Positions 3,611 to 64,000 of a stretch of DNA of 64,000 nucleotides are shown here, in pieces (position 1 is the first letter of the stretch; each line of letters opens with the position of its first letter). The translations under genes were made by a program, and so were the position numbers. The stretch spans positions 23,312,001 to 23,376,000 of the forward strand of contig CM069165.1 of assembly GCA_035221665.1 (NCBI GenBank). The letters run 5' to 3'. Source of the stretch: Okamejei kenojei. Taxonomy: Eukaryota. A model generated the notes under the pieces. That model searched no databases. It saw only the letters and a program-made list of their open reading frames with translations, and was not told where the DNA came from.

Positions 3611-3829
3611 AGGGCCCGTCCCACTTGGCGATTTTTTTTGGCAACTGCGGGCATCATTGACCGAAAAATCTGTGGCGTGATGCGGCACGCTGACGTATGA
3701 CGCGCGGTGTTTTTTCAAGTGTCGCAACTTTTTTTGTCGCCGCTGGATTTTTGAAATGTTCAAAATCTTTTGGCGACACTGATATGACGCCGGTAGTCGC
3801 CGAAATAATCGGCAAGTGGGACAGGCCCT
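3611..3829. mobile_element. PIF/Harbinger MITE
   Basis: TIRs AGGGCCCGTCCCACTTG / CAAGTGGGACAGGCCCT. Confidence 0.78.
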
Positions 3830-4687
3830 TCAGGCCTTGGCTTGCAGAACTAGGGGATGGAAATCACAGATGGGCAAGTCTCCATTGAGAAGGAAGACGT
3901 TACGAAGATTGACACAAGATGCTGGAGTAACTCAGCGGGTCAGGCAACATCTCTGGAGAAAAGGGAGAGGTGAAGTTTCGGGTCGAGACACTTCATCAGA
4001 GTGAGTCAGACTTTATCCATTTACATTACACGTTAACTATCTAAGGATATCCCAAAGAAGTTTAGAATTTAGTCATTCTTGGGGATGGTCACAGCTAAGC
4101 AACAACCAAACTACGCAGCAATCTCCCACACACAGATAATGTCCAGACAATCTATTTTAAAGATATTGGTTGGATAAGTGATTTGGAATTACACACAAAA
4201 AGCTGGAGTAACTCAACGGGTCAGGCAGCATCTCTGGGGAGAAGGAATGGGTGACATTTCGTGTTGAGACCCTTCTTCAGACTTGGAGTACTGCCTTTTT
4301 GGGTATCTGGACAATAAATATCCATGGTCATTAATTCTGAATTTGAAAGAGACATTTTCTTGAAATTGGAGCTCCATCATTAGAATCAGAAATGATAAGG
4401 AATGGTAATGGTTGACATTTTTACTCCAAAGATGTTCGATGGGGTCGCAGTTATGGCCGATAGAGATTTGCCATTGAGTTAGACAGGCACTCTTCTCTAG
4501 CCTGTAGTCAATTGTAAATAATCTGTTAATCTGTTCTGGTTTGCGATGGCTTTGATACTGTTTATAATCGGTCCTACTATCAATGTGTAAATATTGTCCA
4601 TCTGTTTAGCAACCTGACTTTATAATCACTCTATCATTGGCAGTCATGCTTTCAGCTACCAAAGCACTAAAGTCTGGAATTCACTCT

Positions 4688-46647: not shown

Positions 46648-49234
46648 ATAGAATAGAATAGTTTCTTTATTGTCATTGTAACATGAACCATGTACAACGA
46701 AATTTAAAAAAATGTCAGCCAGTCAGTGCACCATTCAAATATTTCTAAAAGCTAACGATACATACAAGGTACAATATTAAAAAAGATAAACAACTAAAAT
46801 AAATATGAAAATAGCACGCATAAACACCCAACCCTATAACCTTCTGTCGATTTCACAGTGTACCAACCACAGTCCCTTAGTCCCTGCGTTCCTTAGCGGC
46901 CACATCTAGTGCCTTTATAGCAGTGGGGTAAAAACTGTTTTTAAGTCTGTTTGTCCTTGTCCTTGTAGATCTGTACTGTCTGCCTGACGGCAACAGTTCA
47001 AACAGGGAGTGTCCGGGGTGGGAAATGTCCTTTATAATATTCTGGGATTTTTTGATGCAGCGGGAACTGTGTAAGTCTTCCAAGGTAGGGAGAGGGCAGC
47101 CGACAATCCTCTGGGCGTTGTCAATGGCCCTCTGGAGCGCTTTCCTCTGGGCCGCTGTGCAGCTGGTGTACCACACGCATACACAGTATGTTAGGATGCT
47201 CTCAATGGATCGGAGCACCGATAAAAGGACAGCAGCAGCCTCTGAGTGATGTTATTCTTCCTGAGCACCCTCAGGAAGTGCAGTCTCTGCTGGACCTTTT
47301 TCAGCAGCGCAGAAGTGTTCACGCTCCACGTCAGGTCCTCCTCAATATGGATTCCCAGGAAGCGGAAATCCGCCACCCTCTCCACACAGTCCCCTCTGAT
47401 GATCAGTGGTACCATGTCCGTTTTGTTCTTCCTGAAGTCTATTATTATCTCCTTGGTCTTTAAGGTGTTGAGGAGCAGGTTATTTTCTCCACACCACACT
47501 GTCAGCTGTTCCGCCTCATCCCGATAGGCATTCTCGTCCCCCCCGGAGATGAGTCCCACCACCTTAGTGTCATCCGCAAATTTGACAATGGTGTTGCTGT
47601 GGTGGGTGGGGGTGCAGTCATGTGTGTAGATGGTGTAGAGCAGGGGGCTCAGCACGCAGCCCTGTGGAGAGCCGGTACTGAGGCTGAGGGCCGTGGATGT
47701 GTGGTGGCCCACTCTGATTCTCTGACTGCGACCCGATAGGAAGCTATTTATCCACATGCAGGTGGAGTGTGGAAGTCCCAAGTCCCCCAGTTTGTCCACC
47801 AGTTTGTGGGGAAGGATAGTATTAAAAGCAGAGCTGTAGTCCACAAAGAGCATCCGCACGTAGCTCCCCCGCTGCTCCAGGTGGGACAGTGCAGCATGGA
47901 GAGCTGTGGCTATAGCGTCCTCTGCAGATCTATTCGCTCTGTACGCAAACTGGTGGGGGTCAAAGCTTCGGGGCAGGAGTGATGTGATATGACCCCGGAT
48001 CAGTTTTTCAAAACACTTCATCACCACTGGTGTGAGTGCGACTGGCCTTTAGTCATTGAGGCTGGAAATGTGGGGTTTTTTGGGCAAGGGGACTATGGTT
48101 GCGGACTTCAGACAGGGTGGGACAGTGGACTGGGCTAGAGACTGGTTAAAAATCCTCGTGAGGACTCCAGCCAGCTGGTCTGCGCAGTCCTTCAGCACGC
48201 GTCCAGAGACACCGTCGGGTCCAGTGGCCTTCCTTGGATTGATGGCCCGCAGCGTGCGCCTCACCTCATGCTCCTCTATTTTGAGGGTTAAGCTGCTGTG
48301 GACCGTATGGTGTGATGTGGCTCTCGGGTGGCTCCACTTCAAAGCGAGCAAAGAAGAGGTTCAGCTCTCTGATGCCTCTCTTCAGGTTAGCTCGGGCCAT
48401 GCTGTATAAAGCCCTATCGCCAGACCTAAAAGCGGTGTTCCTCTCTTTTAACAGCCGCTGGGCCTCCCGGGTCATCCAGGGCTTCTGGTTGGGGTAGACC
48501 CTGATGCGTTAGTCCACTGTGACCGTGTCTACGCAGTTTTTAATGTAACACAGTACACTGTCTGTGAACAACTCCAGGTCCCGGTGTTCAAACACATCCC
48601 AGTTGGTCCTGTCGAGGCAGTCCTGTAGCTGCTGAGATGCACCATCAGGCCAGGTTGTGATGGTCTTTGTGATGGGAGGAGCGGTTTTCCTGAGGGGGGC
48701 ATATGCAGGAATTAAAAGCAGGGACATATGGTCCGACTGACCCAGGTGAGGTAATGGTCTAGCCCTGTAGCCCAGCTTGATGTTGGAGTAGACCTTGTCC
48801 AGTGTGTTAGCTCCTCTTGTAGCACATTTAACATGCTGGTAGAATTTGGGGAGCATTTTCTTCAAGTCCGCGTGATTAAAGTCCCCTGCTATGATGTGAA
48901 CACCGTCCGGATATATGCTCTGTTGACTACTAGTGCTACCGTACAAATGTCCGATAGGCGAGTTAGCATTAGCATCCGGTGGTATGTACACAGCAGTTAT
49001 CATGACAACAGTAAACTCTCTAGGGAGATAAATGGGCCTGCATCTAACAGTCACATACTCCAGGTCCGGGGAGCAGTGTCTGTCCACAATCACTGTGTTT
49101 GTACACCAGGTGTTGTTCATGTACACACAGAGCCCTCCTCCTCTGCTCTTACCAGAGTCTCTTGTCCTGTCATGATGCTGTGCTGTGTAGCCTGCTAGCT
49201 CGATAGCAGAGTCCGGAATGAATGAACGAAGCCA
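46648..49234 (-). mobile_element. Rex1/Babar-clade LINE, 5'-truncated, disrupted ORF (APE + RT)
   Basis: APE motifs (SGKSRGGGLCVY, AVYIPP, IAGDFN, SDH) and RT motifs (VMKCFEKL, QFAYRANRS, GSPQGCVLSPLL, KFADD). The frame has stops, frameshifts and an internal deletion. The 3' end is AATAAA plus a (CTATT)n tail. Confidence 0.92.
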
Positions 49235-50489
49235 TATATTAGGGATGAAGTATTTTTCACTAATACCCAAAACATAACTAAAAGTTTGTTCCTTTTCGAA
49301 GTGTCTCTGCAATGATAGTAGGACTTTGAAGATGAATGAAAGGCTACTAATTGCAGGAAAGAGTTAACATAATGCAAAGTGGTAGTAGATCTGAGAGTTT
49401 TGGGGAAGTGGGTGAGTGTTTTATCCAAGTTTCATTCACTAACATGCTTCTTGAGCCACAGTTTATCAATAATTTATCAATGAATGAGTCCATAATTTAT
49501 CAACGAATTAGCAACGGACTGAAGGGAAGCAAATTAGTCCTCATTTCGAGGTTGACCTCACCAAGGAACTTAATTGGGACAAGTTGAACAAATGATTTCT
49601 TTCTACTCTTTGCTCATCAATCAGTTTTTTCGTTAGTTTGCTGAGCACTTTCCTTCCATTTTAAGCTTAGGCTTAAGATTGATGGTTTAATATCTGAAGA
49701 TGTTCTGACATAGGATCTTCAACCTGAAACCTTATCTCTGTTGCTCCACAGGTGCTACCTGACCTGTTGAGTGTTTCCAGTATTTTTAGTTATTGTTTCA
49801 GATTTCCAACATCTGTAGTTTTATTTTGCTTTTCATGATTTAATAACATATGCACTGGAAAGGAATTAGTCAGCTGGTTTTGTTATCTCCTTAGCTCAGG
49901 ATATGTTAATGGTGCTGTAGCTCAAGTCTTAAAGATAGTCTTAAAGTCTTAAAGATCTGCTTTATCCAGTGTATTTCTGATCATATGACTGACAAACTGA
50001 TGAAAAAAAATGAAATCTGCTTTTTAGCTTCTCGCCAGATGTAGACACAAAGAACTGCAGATGCTGGAATCTTATGTAGAACACAAAGTACTGGAGTAAC
50101 TTAGCGGGTCAGGCAGCATCTCTGGAGGACATGGATAGTGATGTTTTCAAATCGGGACCCTTCTTCAGATTTAGTTCCTAGCCTTTGACCAGGTCTTTAG
50201 TGCAGTCCAAGAATATTAGCAACTTTTTGGAAACTCTCCAGACAAATCTGCTTTTTCACTGAGAAAGTTTTACTTCCTGAACTTAACACGAAAGATTGAA
50301 AATAGAACTAATATTCCAGATGTAGGCAAATTTTGTAGTGAAAACTTCTGGGCCTCAGGAGGCTGGATCCATGTCGGAAGGTTTAGGATGAGATATTAAT
50401 AGCAAGAACAGAAATATTATTTTCAGACTATTCTGCACGACTATTGGGAATGTACATGATGATTACCAATGAAAAATATTAATTTAGGT

Positions 50490-55985: not shown

Positions 55986-56957
55986 CTGTCCAGTTTTAGA
56001 ATTGGCAGTGGGTGGAACTATCCCAAAGGAATACATTTCACATGGTTCAATTTTTGGATATACCAAAGGCAGAACAAGAACATTTTTCTCACACACAATC
56101 CAATATTTCTCATATCTCGGAGGGATCTGTTGATTGCTGAGTTTACATCAATACTATACAAAATGGATTGGGGATACCTAGTCGCTATCATAGAAACAGA
56201 TACGGTTGCATCTGCTTACATAAGGAGGCAAGAAGATAAACTTTTTAATAAGCCCTTTAATACATTTTTGGGATGTGAATGTTACAATAAGAGGGGAATG
56301 GAGGGGATGAATGCACAAATACTTTTACCTAAGTGATGGGAATCAAAAACCATATGATATAAATTTAAGGTGAGAGGGACCAGATTTATTATGAACCTGA
56401 GGGACAATATTTTCACTGATGGTGGTGGATATATGGAACAAGCTTGCAGAGGAGGTAGTTGAGGCAGGAACTGTAACAGCATTTACAAGACTCGGACAGA
56501 TACATGGATAGGAAAGGTTTAGAGGGATATTGGCGAAATGTGGGCAAATGGGACTAGCTTAGATGAGGCACCTTGGTCAATATGGACTTGTCAGGCCAGA
56601 GAGCCTGTTTCCAATCTATGTTAATTTGTAATTCCCTCTGCTTCGGTGTGAGATCTGCAATGGGAGGCCAGGGGATTTGCCGGTGATTCCAACATTAAAA
56701 TCACCTTATGTCACAGTGGTAACGCCCACTTGCAGAAATCTGGAAATGATTGGATTATATAACGTGTTTGGTGATATAGAAACTTTGGAAAGAATGAAAT
56801 CATTTAAAATCGGGAAATAGCTTCAGGCCACACAAAGATTTTCTAGATAGGGATTGGATACAATGAAAGCTGCACGACAGAACTTCTGAAGAAGGGTCTC
56901 GACGCGAAACGTCACCCATTCCTTCTCTCCAGAGATGTTGCCTGTCCCGCTGAGTTA

Positions 56958-57446: not shown

Positions 57447-57569
57447 TTACTCCTGCACTTTGTGTCTATAATTCAATGTAAACCAGCATCTGCAGTTCCT
57501 TCCTACACCTCTCACTTAGAACAGTATAGCACAGGGAGGAGGCCCTTCAACCCACAACGGTTGATGCCA

Positions 57570-57920
57570 AGAGCTACTTATCTGCCCGGCAGCATCTCCC
57601 GGCGAGGCTGTGCTGCGCGCCCCTGCAGCAGCCGCCACTGGGGTCCCGGCCGGCCGCCGGCGGGGAAGGGGAGCAGGGCCCGCGCCCGGGCCGGCCGCGG
57701 TTGCTAAGCGACGGCGTGCGCGGTCCGCGCCCAACCTCCACCCCCCCGCCCGCTTCCGTGTCAACTTCCGGCGCGCGGGTCTCATGCATCCGCCGCTGGC
57801 GCCGCGGCTGCAGTCGGCTCGGAGCTCGGAGCTCTCCCCTCTCCCGAGAAACCACCGACGGGTGAGTAGAGGAGTCCGGGATGGCTCGTCCTCTTGGCTC
57901 CCGTCCGTCCGGGATGGGTG
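57570..57920 (+). promoter_or_regulatory. CpG-island promoter and putative first exon (donor at 57862), probably of CSGALNACT2
   Basis: Very GC/CpG-rich non-repeat DNA; GC box near 57744; ETS sites CTTCCG at 57753 and 57765; X-box-like GTTGCTAAGCGAC at 57700; donor CGG|gtgagt. Gene identity rests only on known RET-CSGALNACT2 synteny. Confidence 0.65.
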
Positions 57921-60088: not shown

Positions 60089-62147
60089 TCCCACACCAGT
60101 CCCACACCAATCAGTCTGAAGAAGAGTCCTGATCCGAAACATCACCTATTCATTTTCTCCAGAGATGCTGCCTAACCTGCTGAGTTACTCCAGCATTTTA
60201 TGTCTATCTTTGGTATATACCATCATCTGCAGTTCCTTTTTATTAAATCTGGGAATATTTGAGTACAACCTAATGGAAGTTGTAGAGCAAATTAAGAAAT
60301 AAATATTTGTTTTTAATGTCTGAAATGGGCTTTATAAAGAGACTTAAAATATAGGAGCAAGAACGTTGTGATGAAACTTTTTGATAAAATACTATTCCTA
60401 GCATAATTGGAGCGCAACAATCAACTTTGTTCAATATATTACGAGCCTAAGAAATGCAAGAGATTTACTATAATGATTCTAGGACTGGTGGTCTGAACCA
60501 ACATGGGTAGACTGGAGAAGCAAGTTGTTTCTCTTTGGAAAGGAAGAGGTCCAGAGGAGATCTGGATGCAGTTATTTAAAATCATGAAAACCCTTGAAGG
60601 GAGGGAAATTGCTTCCACTGCTGATGGAGCCAAGAGCCAGAGGGCATGGAATGGTAATTGACAAAAAAAAAAGATTATATGATGCAGAATTGTTTACACC
60701 AAAGATCATAGAGCGGAGATGATCTCTGGTTTACAGTGAGTATGTTTACACAGTGGAATGCAAGCTGGTAGCGAAGACAGATTTAATCATGGCTATCGAA
60801 TGGGAATTTGATAAGTACTTAAAAGGAAAAGAAATCAAATATATAGTGAAATAGTAGGAAAATGGGGCTAGCTAGATTATTTGCAGTGAGCTGGCACAGA
60901 CGTCATGGGCTGCGGGCCTACTTCTGTTGTGTGACTTTGCTGTGATTCTGATTCTGAAGTTCTGCTGTCAGAATCCTAAAGCTCCCTACCCAACATCTCT
61001 GTGGGAAGAACTGCACTGATCCAAGAGAGAGTTAGATATAGCTCTAAAGGGTAACAGAATCAAGGGATCTGGGGAGAAAGCCGGAACTGGCTACTGATTT
61101 TGGATAATCAGCTATAATCATATTGAATGGTGGTGCTGGCTCAAAGGGCAGAAAGGCCTACTCCTACACCTATTTTCTATGTTTTCTATGTTCTATGTCT
61201 ATGTTATTCAGTAATGTGGTTCATCACCATCATTTTGGAGTAATTAGGTTTGGGGAGTAATTGGCTGGCCTTGTGAGGTATCTCCTCCTATCATTATAAA
61301 GGCAATGCCTGATTATAATTTCATAAGTTAGAGGAGCAGAATTAGGCCAATTGGCCCATGTTTACCATTCAATCATGGCTGATCTATCTTTTCCTCTCAA
61401 CCCCATTCTCCTGACTTCTCCCCATGCCTCTGACACCCGTGTTAATCAAGAATCTAAATTTCTGGTTTAAAAATATCCATTGACTTGGCCTCCGGAGCTG
61501 TCTATGGTAATGAATTCCACAGATTCACCACCCTCTGACGAAAGAAATTCCCCCTCATCTCCTTTCTAAAAGAATGTTATTTTATTCTGAGGCTGTGGCC
61601 TCTGGTCTAAGACTCTCTAGACATTATAATGGAAACAAACATGGTGGAATGATTTGTCAAGTTGGTGGATTTTGTCTACCATCTACGATTGCTTTACCAA
61701 GAGGCTTTGTCTAATACCACAGGAAGGGGATAAGAAATGACAGTTGGTGTATAGTTTGACTCGAAATATCGCAAAGCTGATCATATTCGATAATAATTTA
61801 CTCATGTTACAACAAGCCAACAACAAGTTTTAACGTGTATTTCAAAATTGGAAAGCTTTAAATATACTCTCTTGATAATTCCTCTAGATTTTCAGTTAAG
61901 CTGCTTTGATGTTTCCTTTTCCCATATTTTCAAGATGAGAATGCCAAGTTTCTCAAATCTCTACTGGTCCTTTTTAGATATGTGATCCATTCTCTAGCCA
62001 AGCAAAAGTTTTTTCTCATGGCCAGGACTTCACACAATACTTGATGTACAAGAGACCAGTTCGTGTCCTGCCTCCAGGCCTAAAATATACTGATATCTAT
62101 TTGATATCTGATGTCCACTACAAACGGACCGACTCCCACAGCTCCAT

Positions 62148-62181
62148 AGTCTGAAGAAGGGTCTCGACCCGAAACGTCGCC
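62148..62181 (+). ncRNA. Minimal type I hammerhead ribozyme motif, copy 1
   Basis: CUGAAGA-A-GGGUC UC GACCC-GAAAC-GUC: conserved core, GC-rich stem II, palindromic ACGU in place of stem III, GUC cleavage triplet. Confidence 0.7.
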
Positions 62182-62392
62182 CATCTCCTTCGCTCCTTAG
62201 ATGCTGCTGCACCCGCTGAGTTTCTCCAGCTTTTTGTGTAACCCTCGATTCTCCAGCATCTGCAGTTTCTTCGTTAACAGCTTACAATGGCTTGTTCCCT
62301 TTATCATTGATACTTTTTTGCATATCTTTCATTCATTGTTCTTTATCTTTCCACATCACCGTCTATATCTCTCGTTTCCCTGATCCTTGAAC

Positions 62393-62426
62393 AGTCTGAA
62401 GAAGGGTCTCGACCCGAAACGTCACC
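62393..62426 (+). ncRNA. Minimal type I hammerhead ribozyme motif, copy 2
   Basis: Identical core CUGAAGAAGGGUCUCGACCCGAAACGUC, 245 nt downstream of copy 1. Confidence 0.7.
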
Positions 62427-63298
62427 TATCTCCTTCGCTCCTTAGATGCTGCTGCACCCTCTGAGTTTCTCCAGCCTTTTGTGTACCTCTGATATCTATT
62501 TCAACCAGGTTCAGTTTTATCAAGTTAAAGGAATATTTAAAGGTTTTACTTGGTTGTGCTTAACCCTAGGGTAAAGGATGTGCAGAAATTGAGGCACAGG
62601 CTCTCCTTCTGGGGACTTCCAGGAAGCTCATAAAGACTGTAGAGAATGGTTGCTCCCTGTGTTCAAGGGAATTGGATAGGAAGTACTTAAGGAGAAATTA
62701 TAAAGGGTTTGGAACAACGGAAAAGAAAATAACAAGTTTGCCGTTGGGCACTATCTGCCTGAAAACCCGATTCTTGGCAGATAGGGTTCAACTCTGCATG
62801 TTAGTGCACCGCAGATCACAGGTTTGTTTTGATTACATTCACTCTTTGCCTTAAGGTGGCAAGATAAACACACTGCCTAGCGGCTTCAGTTGCCTGAGGC
62901 TATGTTACAAAGAGTCTACAGTATAGAAATGGATCAACCATCTTCAGCTCATTCCTTTAATGTGATCCTTTAAACAGTTTGCCTTCATGCTCTTGTGACT
63001 TCCTCTTAATTGTATCCATTGAATATAAATTTCAGCCACACTCTGAGATACCATGTGTACCTGTTTCTAACCGCTCTTTAGGCTCCCAAGCTATTTGACA
63101 TTGATAGTCTGATGGGCTGAAAGGATTGGGGAGAAATCACAACTCCCAGTATAAGTTGTCCTCGTATCTCCAGAGGGCAGGGTGTTTTAAAGCAGTTCAA
63201 AGCATGGCCAGGAAACAGACCACTAGAGAAGGATAATAGACAAGAGTATAAAAGACTGGAAGCCAGGGAGAGTTAAATTAAAGATAGAAGAGATCTTG

Positions 63299-63586: not shown

Positions 63587-64000
63587 TGGGAGAGAACAAG
63601 TGGAAATGGGTCTGATCTGACTTCCAAGCTATCGTATTAACAACAATGTTGACAGTGCATATCTCCCTCTTTAATTCCAAATGCATTAAGATAATTTTTT
63701 GGCTTATTGCTGAAGTTGATCTTGAATGAATTAAATGTTGTATTTAATTCATTTAAGATCAACTTTCATTGTGCCAATTTTTTTATTTTTGCAAAGAGTT
63801 TTCATCCTTCATCTCAGAAAGACCCTTTTATTGTGTTATGCAGCTTTGCTGAGATGAATTGTATCAAAAATGGGCATGTATCGAGCCTTTTGGCAAGAAT
63901 ACTGTTAAAATAAATGATAGAGGCTGGAATGATTGAAAGTGAGATGAGGTGCCACAAGATTCTGTACCTGCTGTGATGACAGAGTGTGTCTTTGTGGAAG

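Follow-up and report, generated by a model that had tools for sequence, protein, structure and literature searches.

A hammerhead pair in Okamejei kenojei as the probable remnant of nested insertions of a Penelope-like element

The window analysed here, meaning the whole stretch of 64,000 nucleotides of Okamejei kenojei DNA, carries an insert with two hammerhead motifs. We conclude, with a probability of roughly 0.75, that this insert is what is left of two insertions, one nested in the other, of a single endonuclease-bearing Penelope-like element (PLE) of very high abundance, together with a loss of about 1.08 kb. The features given in a preliminary description of the sequence are real, whereas its reading of them as a retrozyme is unlikely. 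The locus itself is ordinary: PLE end fragments like it number in the tens of thousands, and it is probably inert. The point of interest is how the hammerhead pair formed, and the mechanism behind it is moderately interesting.

Structure and surroundings of the insert

The insert, 386 bp in length, is enclosed by direct repeats of CTGATATCTATTT at 62090–62102 and 62489–62501 (this and all other features of the insert are on the + strand). The corresponding site is empty in a relative (organism C): in a contig of run X10, window positions 61689–62089 (record 593–1004) are followed by 62489–62974 (record 1005–1510) with no gap in the record, and the 13-mer occurs once only. Because the empty site holds a single copy, the repeat is a true target-site duplication (TSD), and the earlier claim of a 13-bp TSD around a 386-bp insert is thus borne out by the repeat positions and by the empty site.

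On the map of L149, a natural full-length copy of the parent PLE, the insert consists of unit 2732–2761 (RT), 4 nt, unit 3842–3939 (the end of the pseudo-LTR, or pLTR, with core 1), a 35-nt tail, and unit 3727–3936 (pLTR with core 2). The 5′ junction (62103–62113) is only loosely similar to the parent RT in L149; its first 7 nt (62103–62109) repeat part of the target, and the segment appears to be filler sequence. The RT remnant of the outer (host) copy follows at 62114–62143, where 27 of the 30 nt (90%) are identical to unit 2732–2761, which reads TDIHYKPTDSHSYLDY in the parent. The translation of 62107–62154 is SDVHYKRTDSHSSIV followed by a stop. The previously recognised Penelope RT remnant therefore stands as regards its RT-like translation and its match to a parent in the same genome, but the DNA match covers these 30 nt and not the first 45 nt.

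A 4-nt join (62144–62147) marks the probable internal loss, of about 1.08 kb. The RT/hammerhead junction formed by it occurs nowhere else, with 1 genome match in a search allowing up to 2 mismatches. A mobile subfamily of 386-bp inserts was ruled out by the single genome match, and a splice join between the remnant and the hammerhead was ruled out by the parent, which has no GT donor after the remnant. Beyond the join lie the inner copy (62148–62244), which is a pLTR end starting at unit 3842 with haplotype T/AA; the PLE tail of 35 nt (62245–62279), which corresponds to the start of the element's 5′ region (unit 1–35 of L149); and the pLTR of the outer copy up to its tail-less end (62280–62488), with haplotype C/A. 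The self-target site in the host pLTR (62276–62294; unit 3727–3745) has its first 4 nt in common with the tail end, and its upstream duplicate, present in sister loci, is gone at the window locus. From the L149 map, therefore, the 245-nt unit is closed by the tail-to-pLTR junction at 62279/62280, about 100 nt off either predicted cut. The 98-nt direct repeats (62148–62245 and 62393–62490; spacing 245) show 94% identity, and common family variants are among the 6 of 98 sites at which the two halves differ. The haplotypes T/AA and C/A are both common, accounting for 67 and 31 of 163 pLTR ends, respectively.

Both hammerhead cores proved to be intact and at the positions claimed for them: the exact 28-nt core of the minimal type I hammerhead occurs at 62151–62178 and 62396–62423, 245 nt apart, with predicted cuts after 62178 and 62423. 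The motif is not a chance occurrence, because 10 matches at up to 3 mismatches are present in the window versus 0 in each of 100 shuffles. Eight more cores in the window are decayed (1003, 3972, 4253, 22827, 26341, 34424, 44525, and 56886), and the one at 56886 has older-subfamily flanks. Genome-wide, 48,215 exact cores were counted in 2.76 Gb, within the pLTR of the PLE, and the pLTR-end motif next to the core has 115,513 matches. In kind, the repeats resemble those of a ray or skate. Several traits of PLE minimal hammerheads are present, namely an intact core, stem II, an extra nucleotide after A9, and a palindromic helix III; the ACGU helix and the assignment to the minimal hammerheads, both made previously, agree with the features described in PMC4209133. 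The extra A after A9 had been regarded as a caveat. A defect of this kind was ruled out, since a nucleotide between 9 and 10.1 is described in PMC4209133 as conserved in PLE minimal hammerheads. The other caveat, a short stem I, holds: the stem has 2 bp only without a bulge, not 4–5 bp, and a 5-bp bulged stem I is possible only between the 5′ strand of copy 1 and the 3′ strand of copy 2 (best duplex, −1.5 kcal/mol).

Rfam gave no match in the window at the gathering score and, at E up to 10, three chance-level matches, none of them to a hammerhead family. Folding of the insert and the single cores yielded no hammerhead fold (z = 0.73, −0.04, 1.27, and 0.97). The constrained dimer fold had −50.4 kcal/mol against a minimum of −69.5 kcal/mol, a cost of about 19 kcal/mol in a model that cannot score tertiary contacts or the second stem I, and the predicted pair probabilities of stem II were 0.005 and 0.14. 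The predicted 245-nt circle (−33.1 kcal/mol, 45% paired) folds like its shuffles (z = −0.27 vs 100 shuffles). With a 2-bp stem I and a circle predicted to be unstructured, cleavage and circle formation look unfavourable. PLE minimal hammerheads, dimers included, are reported to have low in vitro activity (PMC4209133), the Anolis motif to require protein (PMC11167929), and 1 of 9 Xenopus dimers to have been cleaved (bioRxiv 10.64898/2026.07.22.740005). The circle junction 62423/62179, proposed earlier as a diagnostic of circular RNA, has the same sequence as an ordinary parent pLTR-plus-tail transcript, private changes aside, and the proposed test is therefore confounded.

The insert had also been placed in sense within an intron of the downstream gene. 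Such a position, in intron 1, is plausible because a CpG-rich stretch with a splice donor lies upstream and + strand CHGN-family exons lie downstream. The CpG-rich stretch (57560–57861, + strand) is probably the promoter of the host gene together with a first exon that is non-coding, and it is closed by a strong + strand donor after 57861. A 255-aa + strand frame lies about 17 kb beyond the window and is followed by CHGN-family coding exons (17–32 kb beyond the window), which we take to belong to a CSGALNACT2-like gene. Most likely, the locus is an inert fossil in intron 1 of this chondroitin GalNAc-transferase gene. Exon prediction with a rough splice matrix gave nothing useful near the insert. 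When the + strand ORFs were scanned against Pfam, 3 of 134 had a match, and the match to Mei4 is probably coiled-coil noise, since the same ORF weakly matches CHGN. The surroundings also include another copy of this PLE, long and rearranged, which lies antisense in the same probable intron some 5 kb past the end of the window (L032:4857–7578, minus strand); an AT-rich inverted repeat of 24 bp, nearly perfect, with 5 nt between its arms (window 63713–63765); and broken LINE-like endonuclease and RT frames, recognised by eye (window 46877–49363, minus strand).

The parent element and the target site in its own pLTR

The autonomous RT + GIY-YIG parent, for which a search had been suggested, is present in the same genome and matches the RT remnant. 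At loci matching the insert, the end of an RT + GIY-YIG ORF lies directly upstream of the same repeat, and the 30 loci from a search with the RT fragment include open frames of 595–774 aa with YIDD, CNRKKCNTC, and YIG. The parent has a single ORF, with RT and with GIY-YIG at its C terminus. Pfam matches of this ORF to RVT_1 (E = 4.5e-5) and GIY-YIG (E = 2.2e-4) were both below the curated cut-offs, and a PDB search with it gave 0 matches. The Cys linker CNRKKCNTC (CX4CXXC) points to a PLE of the Neptune or Nematis type, a CX2-5CxxC linker between RT and endonuclease being described as a trait of these groups (PMC8557442). L149 has the order pLTR-tail-ORF-pLTR with a unit of 3,939 bp, and its cores at 1584 and 5521, 3,937 bp apart, lie in a partial-tandem pLTR arrangement. 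The 35-nt tail, the inverted 5′-truncated arm, and the TSD of EN+ PLEs were all found; the tail is carried at one end of insertions, and L010 ends at it.

The family was surveyed in 137 de-duplicated element clusters within the fetched loci, which are a non-random sample. TSDs of at least 7 nt were called in 61 of the 137 clusters (range 7–21 nt, mostly 13–14 nt), and the short calls among them may be chance or partial. Two-sided 3′-type ends consist of one tail end and one tail-less end in 20 of 21 clusters. Arm starts were examined in 30 arms, chosen by the pLTR-end motif only and stemming in some cases from the same insertion: 15 are at unit 3841–3843, 18 at 3838–3847, and 0 at the cleavage position. 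The inner copy of the window thus starts, at unit 3842, at the commonest 5′ boundary of the family. A 5′ end of the insert at the ribozyme cut was ruled out, as 0 of the 30 arms begin there. By analogy, the pattern of arm starts fits the both-strand extension reported for Anolis, in which the tail lies between two RT starts and the template is mainly uncleaved RNA (PMC11167929).

Several further observations concern the 5′ ends of the copies. Most short copies (L176–L205, unit 3838–3847; window 62148) start at the 5′ edge of the hammerhead core. The sequence at this start fits an initiator motif, and it fits a splice acceptor too. Unit 3838–3847 could be an RNA start, with the 97–133-nt copies as strong-stop-like products. 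A good splice donor overlapping a possible start codon is present at L149:1740–1750, about 70 nt past the pLTR end; this donor and the acceptor-like site before the hammerhead could lead to splicing or back-splicing of a 165-nt exon. Several copies have their start, or a change of orientation, no more than about 100 nt from the HYKPTDSH codons (unit 2640–2740), namely L005, L008, L009, L010, L018, L021, L030, L145, and the window copy at 62114. This region is a possible second hotspot of 5′ truncation.

As a stand-in for a genome-wide count of core pairs by spacing, the tail-to-pLTR junction was searched with up to 2 mismatches allowed, and 8 kb were fetched around the 25 non-window loci. The junction occurs at 26 loci genome-wide, no two of which are 245 nt apart. 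A host half ending at the same site was found upstream in 17 of the 26 by motif search and in 2 more (L127 and L130) by BLAST, which makes 19 of 26. Typically, the host ORF and 3′ region run to unit 3745, an inverted tail-less pLTR arm and a forward arm with the tail follow, and the host is resumed at 3727–3731. Judged by this layout, the typical junction locus arose by nested insertion, which duplicated about 15–19 nt. The 7 loci without a split host half are the window locus and L122, L134, L138, L139, L140, and L141; the latter six could be dimers that moved as a unit. L138 and L139 lie 23 kb apart on opposite strands of C6 with near-identical three-pLTR layouts, one of them only 87% identical to the parent, and they may represent one event, through a local duplication or an assembly problem.

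The haplotypes of the inner and outer pLTR ends differ in 14 of 20 scorable loci and are the same in 6 (another 6 were unscorable), although the letters concerned lie next to runs of T and A, where the same mutation could recur. The inner inverted arm and the inner forward arm share the diagnostic letter in all 10 loci read. A search for the upstream junction gave 21 loci, of which 5 overlap the 26, 5 more are complete nested inserts, and several are one-armed. The one-armed events at the same pLTR site (L159, L164, L165, L170, and L174) have the inverted tail-less arm only, with small duplications or deletions. The older-subfamily version of the junction was found at 10 more loci, 6 of them with a split host half and 3 of them young inserts in older hosts; in the latter, two separate events, acting in trans, must therefore have taken place.

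The preference for this site can be gauged as follows. Intact targets number about 19,760 and arms at most 115,513, and uniform insertion predicts by simple arithmetic about 0.4 events per base and orientation, versus at least 26 seen. When up to 1 mismatch was allowed, the hotspot junction was recovered at 24 of the 26 loci, while the opposite orientation at the same site gave 0 junctions, another TGTT gave 2, both apparently real, and another AACA site in the element gave 0. The hotspot is thus preferred (24 loci versus 0, 2, and 0), to a degree that is provisional with few controls of one register each. This preference may be due in part to microhomology with the two RT start sites. The target 21-mer (window 62276–62296) forms an imperfect palindrome bounded by AACA and TGTT, and the tail joins only one of its sides (26 versus 0).

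The genomic copies define a specific 21-nt target, a stagger of about 15–19 nt, and one orientation, kept between subfamilies. PLE tandems, tails, inverted arms, and insertions in or beside earlier copies are described in print (PMC8557442, PMC2377424, PMC3846280, PMC6765202); we found no report of a fixed, orientation-specific PLE self-target site in the open-licence full-text literature. It is plausible that an orientation-specific hotspot is the origin of PLE tandems and retrozyme seeds. A fuller version, which we put forward tentatively and at somewhat short of even odds, is that homing directs the PLE lineage, in one orientation, to a single conserved site of its own pLTR, and that the lineage nicks both strands, each primed at a different RT start, and so repeatedly builds short head-to-tail hammerhead dimers, the missing step to pLTR tandems and animal retrozyme seeds; the window locus would be such a seed, which might be cut in the host pre-mRNA with PLE protein.

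Formation of the hammerhead pair

The preferred history of the window locus, two nested insertions, comprises three steps. First, a 5′-truncated copy inserted with the 13-bp TSD that is seen at the locus. A second copy of about 133 nt would then have entered the first at the fixed site 114 nt upstream of the hammerhead, with its tail end downstream, as is seen in the sister loci; insertion at this pLTR site would place two hammerheads 245 nt apart. Finally, either with the second step or later, the stretch that separated the RT remnant from the inner copy, about 1.08 kb, would have been lost, so that 30 nt of RT remain. Most sister loci have an inverted arm, and the collapse of such an arm is one way in which the loss could have come about. 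As for the chemistry, the Anolis in vitro data suggest staggered nicks 13–19 nt apart with each strand priming RT, and the priming would use two start sites on uncleaved RNA, the tail end and the pLTR end. Against nesting at this locus stands the fact that the upstream host half and any inverted arm are gone, so that nesting is not directly visible there.

The locus was compared across four of 24 runs. Run X22, which is probably DNA, did not cover the unique flanks. In a second sample of the species, a contig runs through the RT junction to 62171; this one other sample carries both junctions, and no presence/absence polymorphism was seen in it. One contig of organism B fits as far as 62143 and ends in 13 unfitted letters, and another starts in the pLTR end. 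From these contigs, organism B has the insertion, but probably not in the deleted 386-bp form.

Alternatively, an ORF-pLTR-tail-pLTR dimer formed beforehand by self-insertion elsewhere could have been retrotransposed as one linear RNA, with a template jump at the 5′ end from the 5′ edge of the hammerhead to the RT region. The enclosure of the whole insert in one TSD and the 7 of 26 loci, this one included, that have no split host half agree with such a history, as does the recurrence of a T/AA inner and a C/A outer end in 8 of 20 scorable loci, again with this locus included. However, 5 of these 8 loci (L123, L131, L133, L135, and L136) have their own split host halves, which means that the combination arises by independent nesting too, and organism B appears to differ beyond the RT remnant, which points to a change after insertion. 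We regard this alternative as unlikely. Another possibility is that the tandem was made, without a second retrotransposition, by a tail-bearing copy and another pLTR recombining unequally, or by a local duplication. The 4 nt shared at the junction and the approximately 115,000 pLTR ends available as substrates would favour it, but recombination would not yield a 15–19-nt site duplication with an inverted arm between the halves, nor is it in line with the 0 junctions at another AACA site in the element; it is therefore very improbable.

The least probable history, with hardly a chance of being correct, is the one originally proposed, namely that a non-LTR retrozyme was copied from a 245-nt circle released by cleavage of the dimeric hammerhead. 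Its size, GC content of 44%, two intact cores, and long TSD fit the outline given in PMC7229834, and a preprint reports animal retrozymes from PLE pLTRs, with retrozymes present in its sole sampled chondrichthyan genome (bioRxiv 10.64898/2026.07.22.740005). Shaping by a circular RNA was nevertheless not upheld: the unit boundary is a junction of the tail with a fixed pLTR site, 19 of the 26 loci are nested in split hosts, the window halves have unlike haplotypes with differences at 6 of 98 sites that include common family variants, and the window form is unique. There is no sign of amplification as a unit from dimers to multimers, as none of the 26 junctions belongs to a trimer or array of three units, and no array was detected by TRF. 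An RT remnant would be absent from a circle, and the structure predictions show neither a stable, highly self-paired monomer (z = −0.27) nor a favoured dimer fold or stem II; in the preprint, too, only 1 of the 9 dimers tested was cleaved. According to published descriptions, retrozymes occur in arrays and form circles that are structured (PMC7229834), and the working definition of the preprint is a tandem found by TRF in which two or more consecutive units each contain a complete hammerhead; the present locus has two complete cores 245 nt apart but spans 1.4 units, and TRF reports no array there. A pair of hammerheads separated by a few hundred bases is not on its own the mark of a retrozyme.

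Comparison with known systems

As described in PMC8557442 (Craig et al. 2021), PMC2377424 (Schostak et al. 2008), and PMC3846280 (Arkhipova et al. 2013), the EN+ PLEs Neptune and Nematis resemble the parent element in having a single ORF with RT and with GIY-YIG at the C terminus, a Cys-rich linker, a pLTR with a hammerhead, and a 30–40-nt tail at one end, as well as inverted 5′-truncated arms, partial tandems, and TSDs of about 8–10 bp or more. Two differences exist. One is that their tandems are described as a general propensity, whereas here a subset occurs at one fixed pLTR position in one orientation. Another is that the tandem here is a short pLTR-only one of 245 nt, not a pLTR plus the full ORF.

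For Poseidon of Anolis (PAc), it is reported that both strands are nicked and extended in vitro and that two RT start sites bracket the tail (PMC11167929; Frangieh et al. 2024). According to that report, the template is mainly uncleaved RNA and RNA-seq shows no ends at the cut, and nicking "in its own pLTR" is proposed. PAc belongs to a different clade, Poseidon, and is described in the same report as preferring an ATT motif near the ORF-pLTR junction, whereas the site here is a near-palindromic pLTR 21-mer, known from genomic copies and not in vitro.

The metazoan PLE minimal hammerheads described by Cervera and de la Pena (2014; PMC4209133) share the core, the extra nucleotide after A9, the G10.1-C11.1 pair, and the palindromic 15.2–16.2. 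The stem I of 2 bp is like that of D. virilis and shorter than the 4–5 bp of Schistosoma, according to the same report. Animal non-LTR retrozymes, as outlined in PMC7229834 (Cervera and de la Pena 2020) and bioRxiv 10.64898/2026.07.22.740005, are similar in monomer size, low GC, two tandem hammerheads, a long TSD, and PLE pLTR ancestry, and their pLTR origin is already in print (Li, Clavereau and Pollet 2026; the latter preprint). The window locus differs from them, as so described, in its minimal, not canonical, hammerheads, its monomer predicted to be unstructured, its unlike halves, and its RT remnant, and in showing neither arrays nor amplification of the unit.
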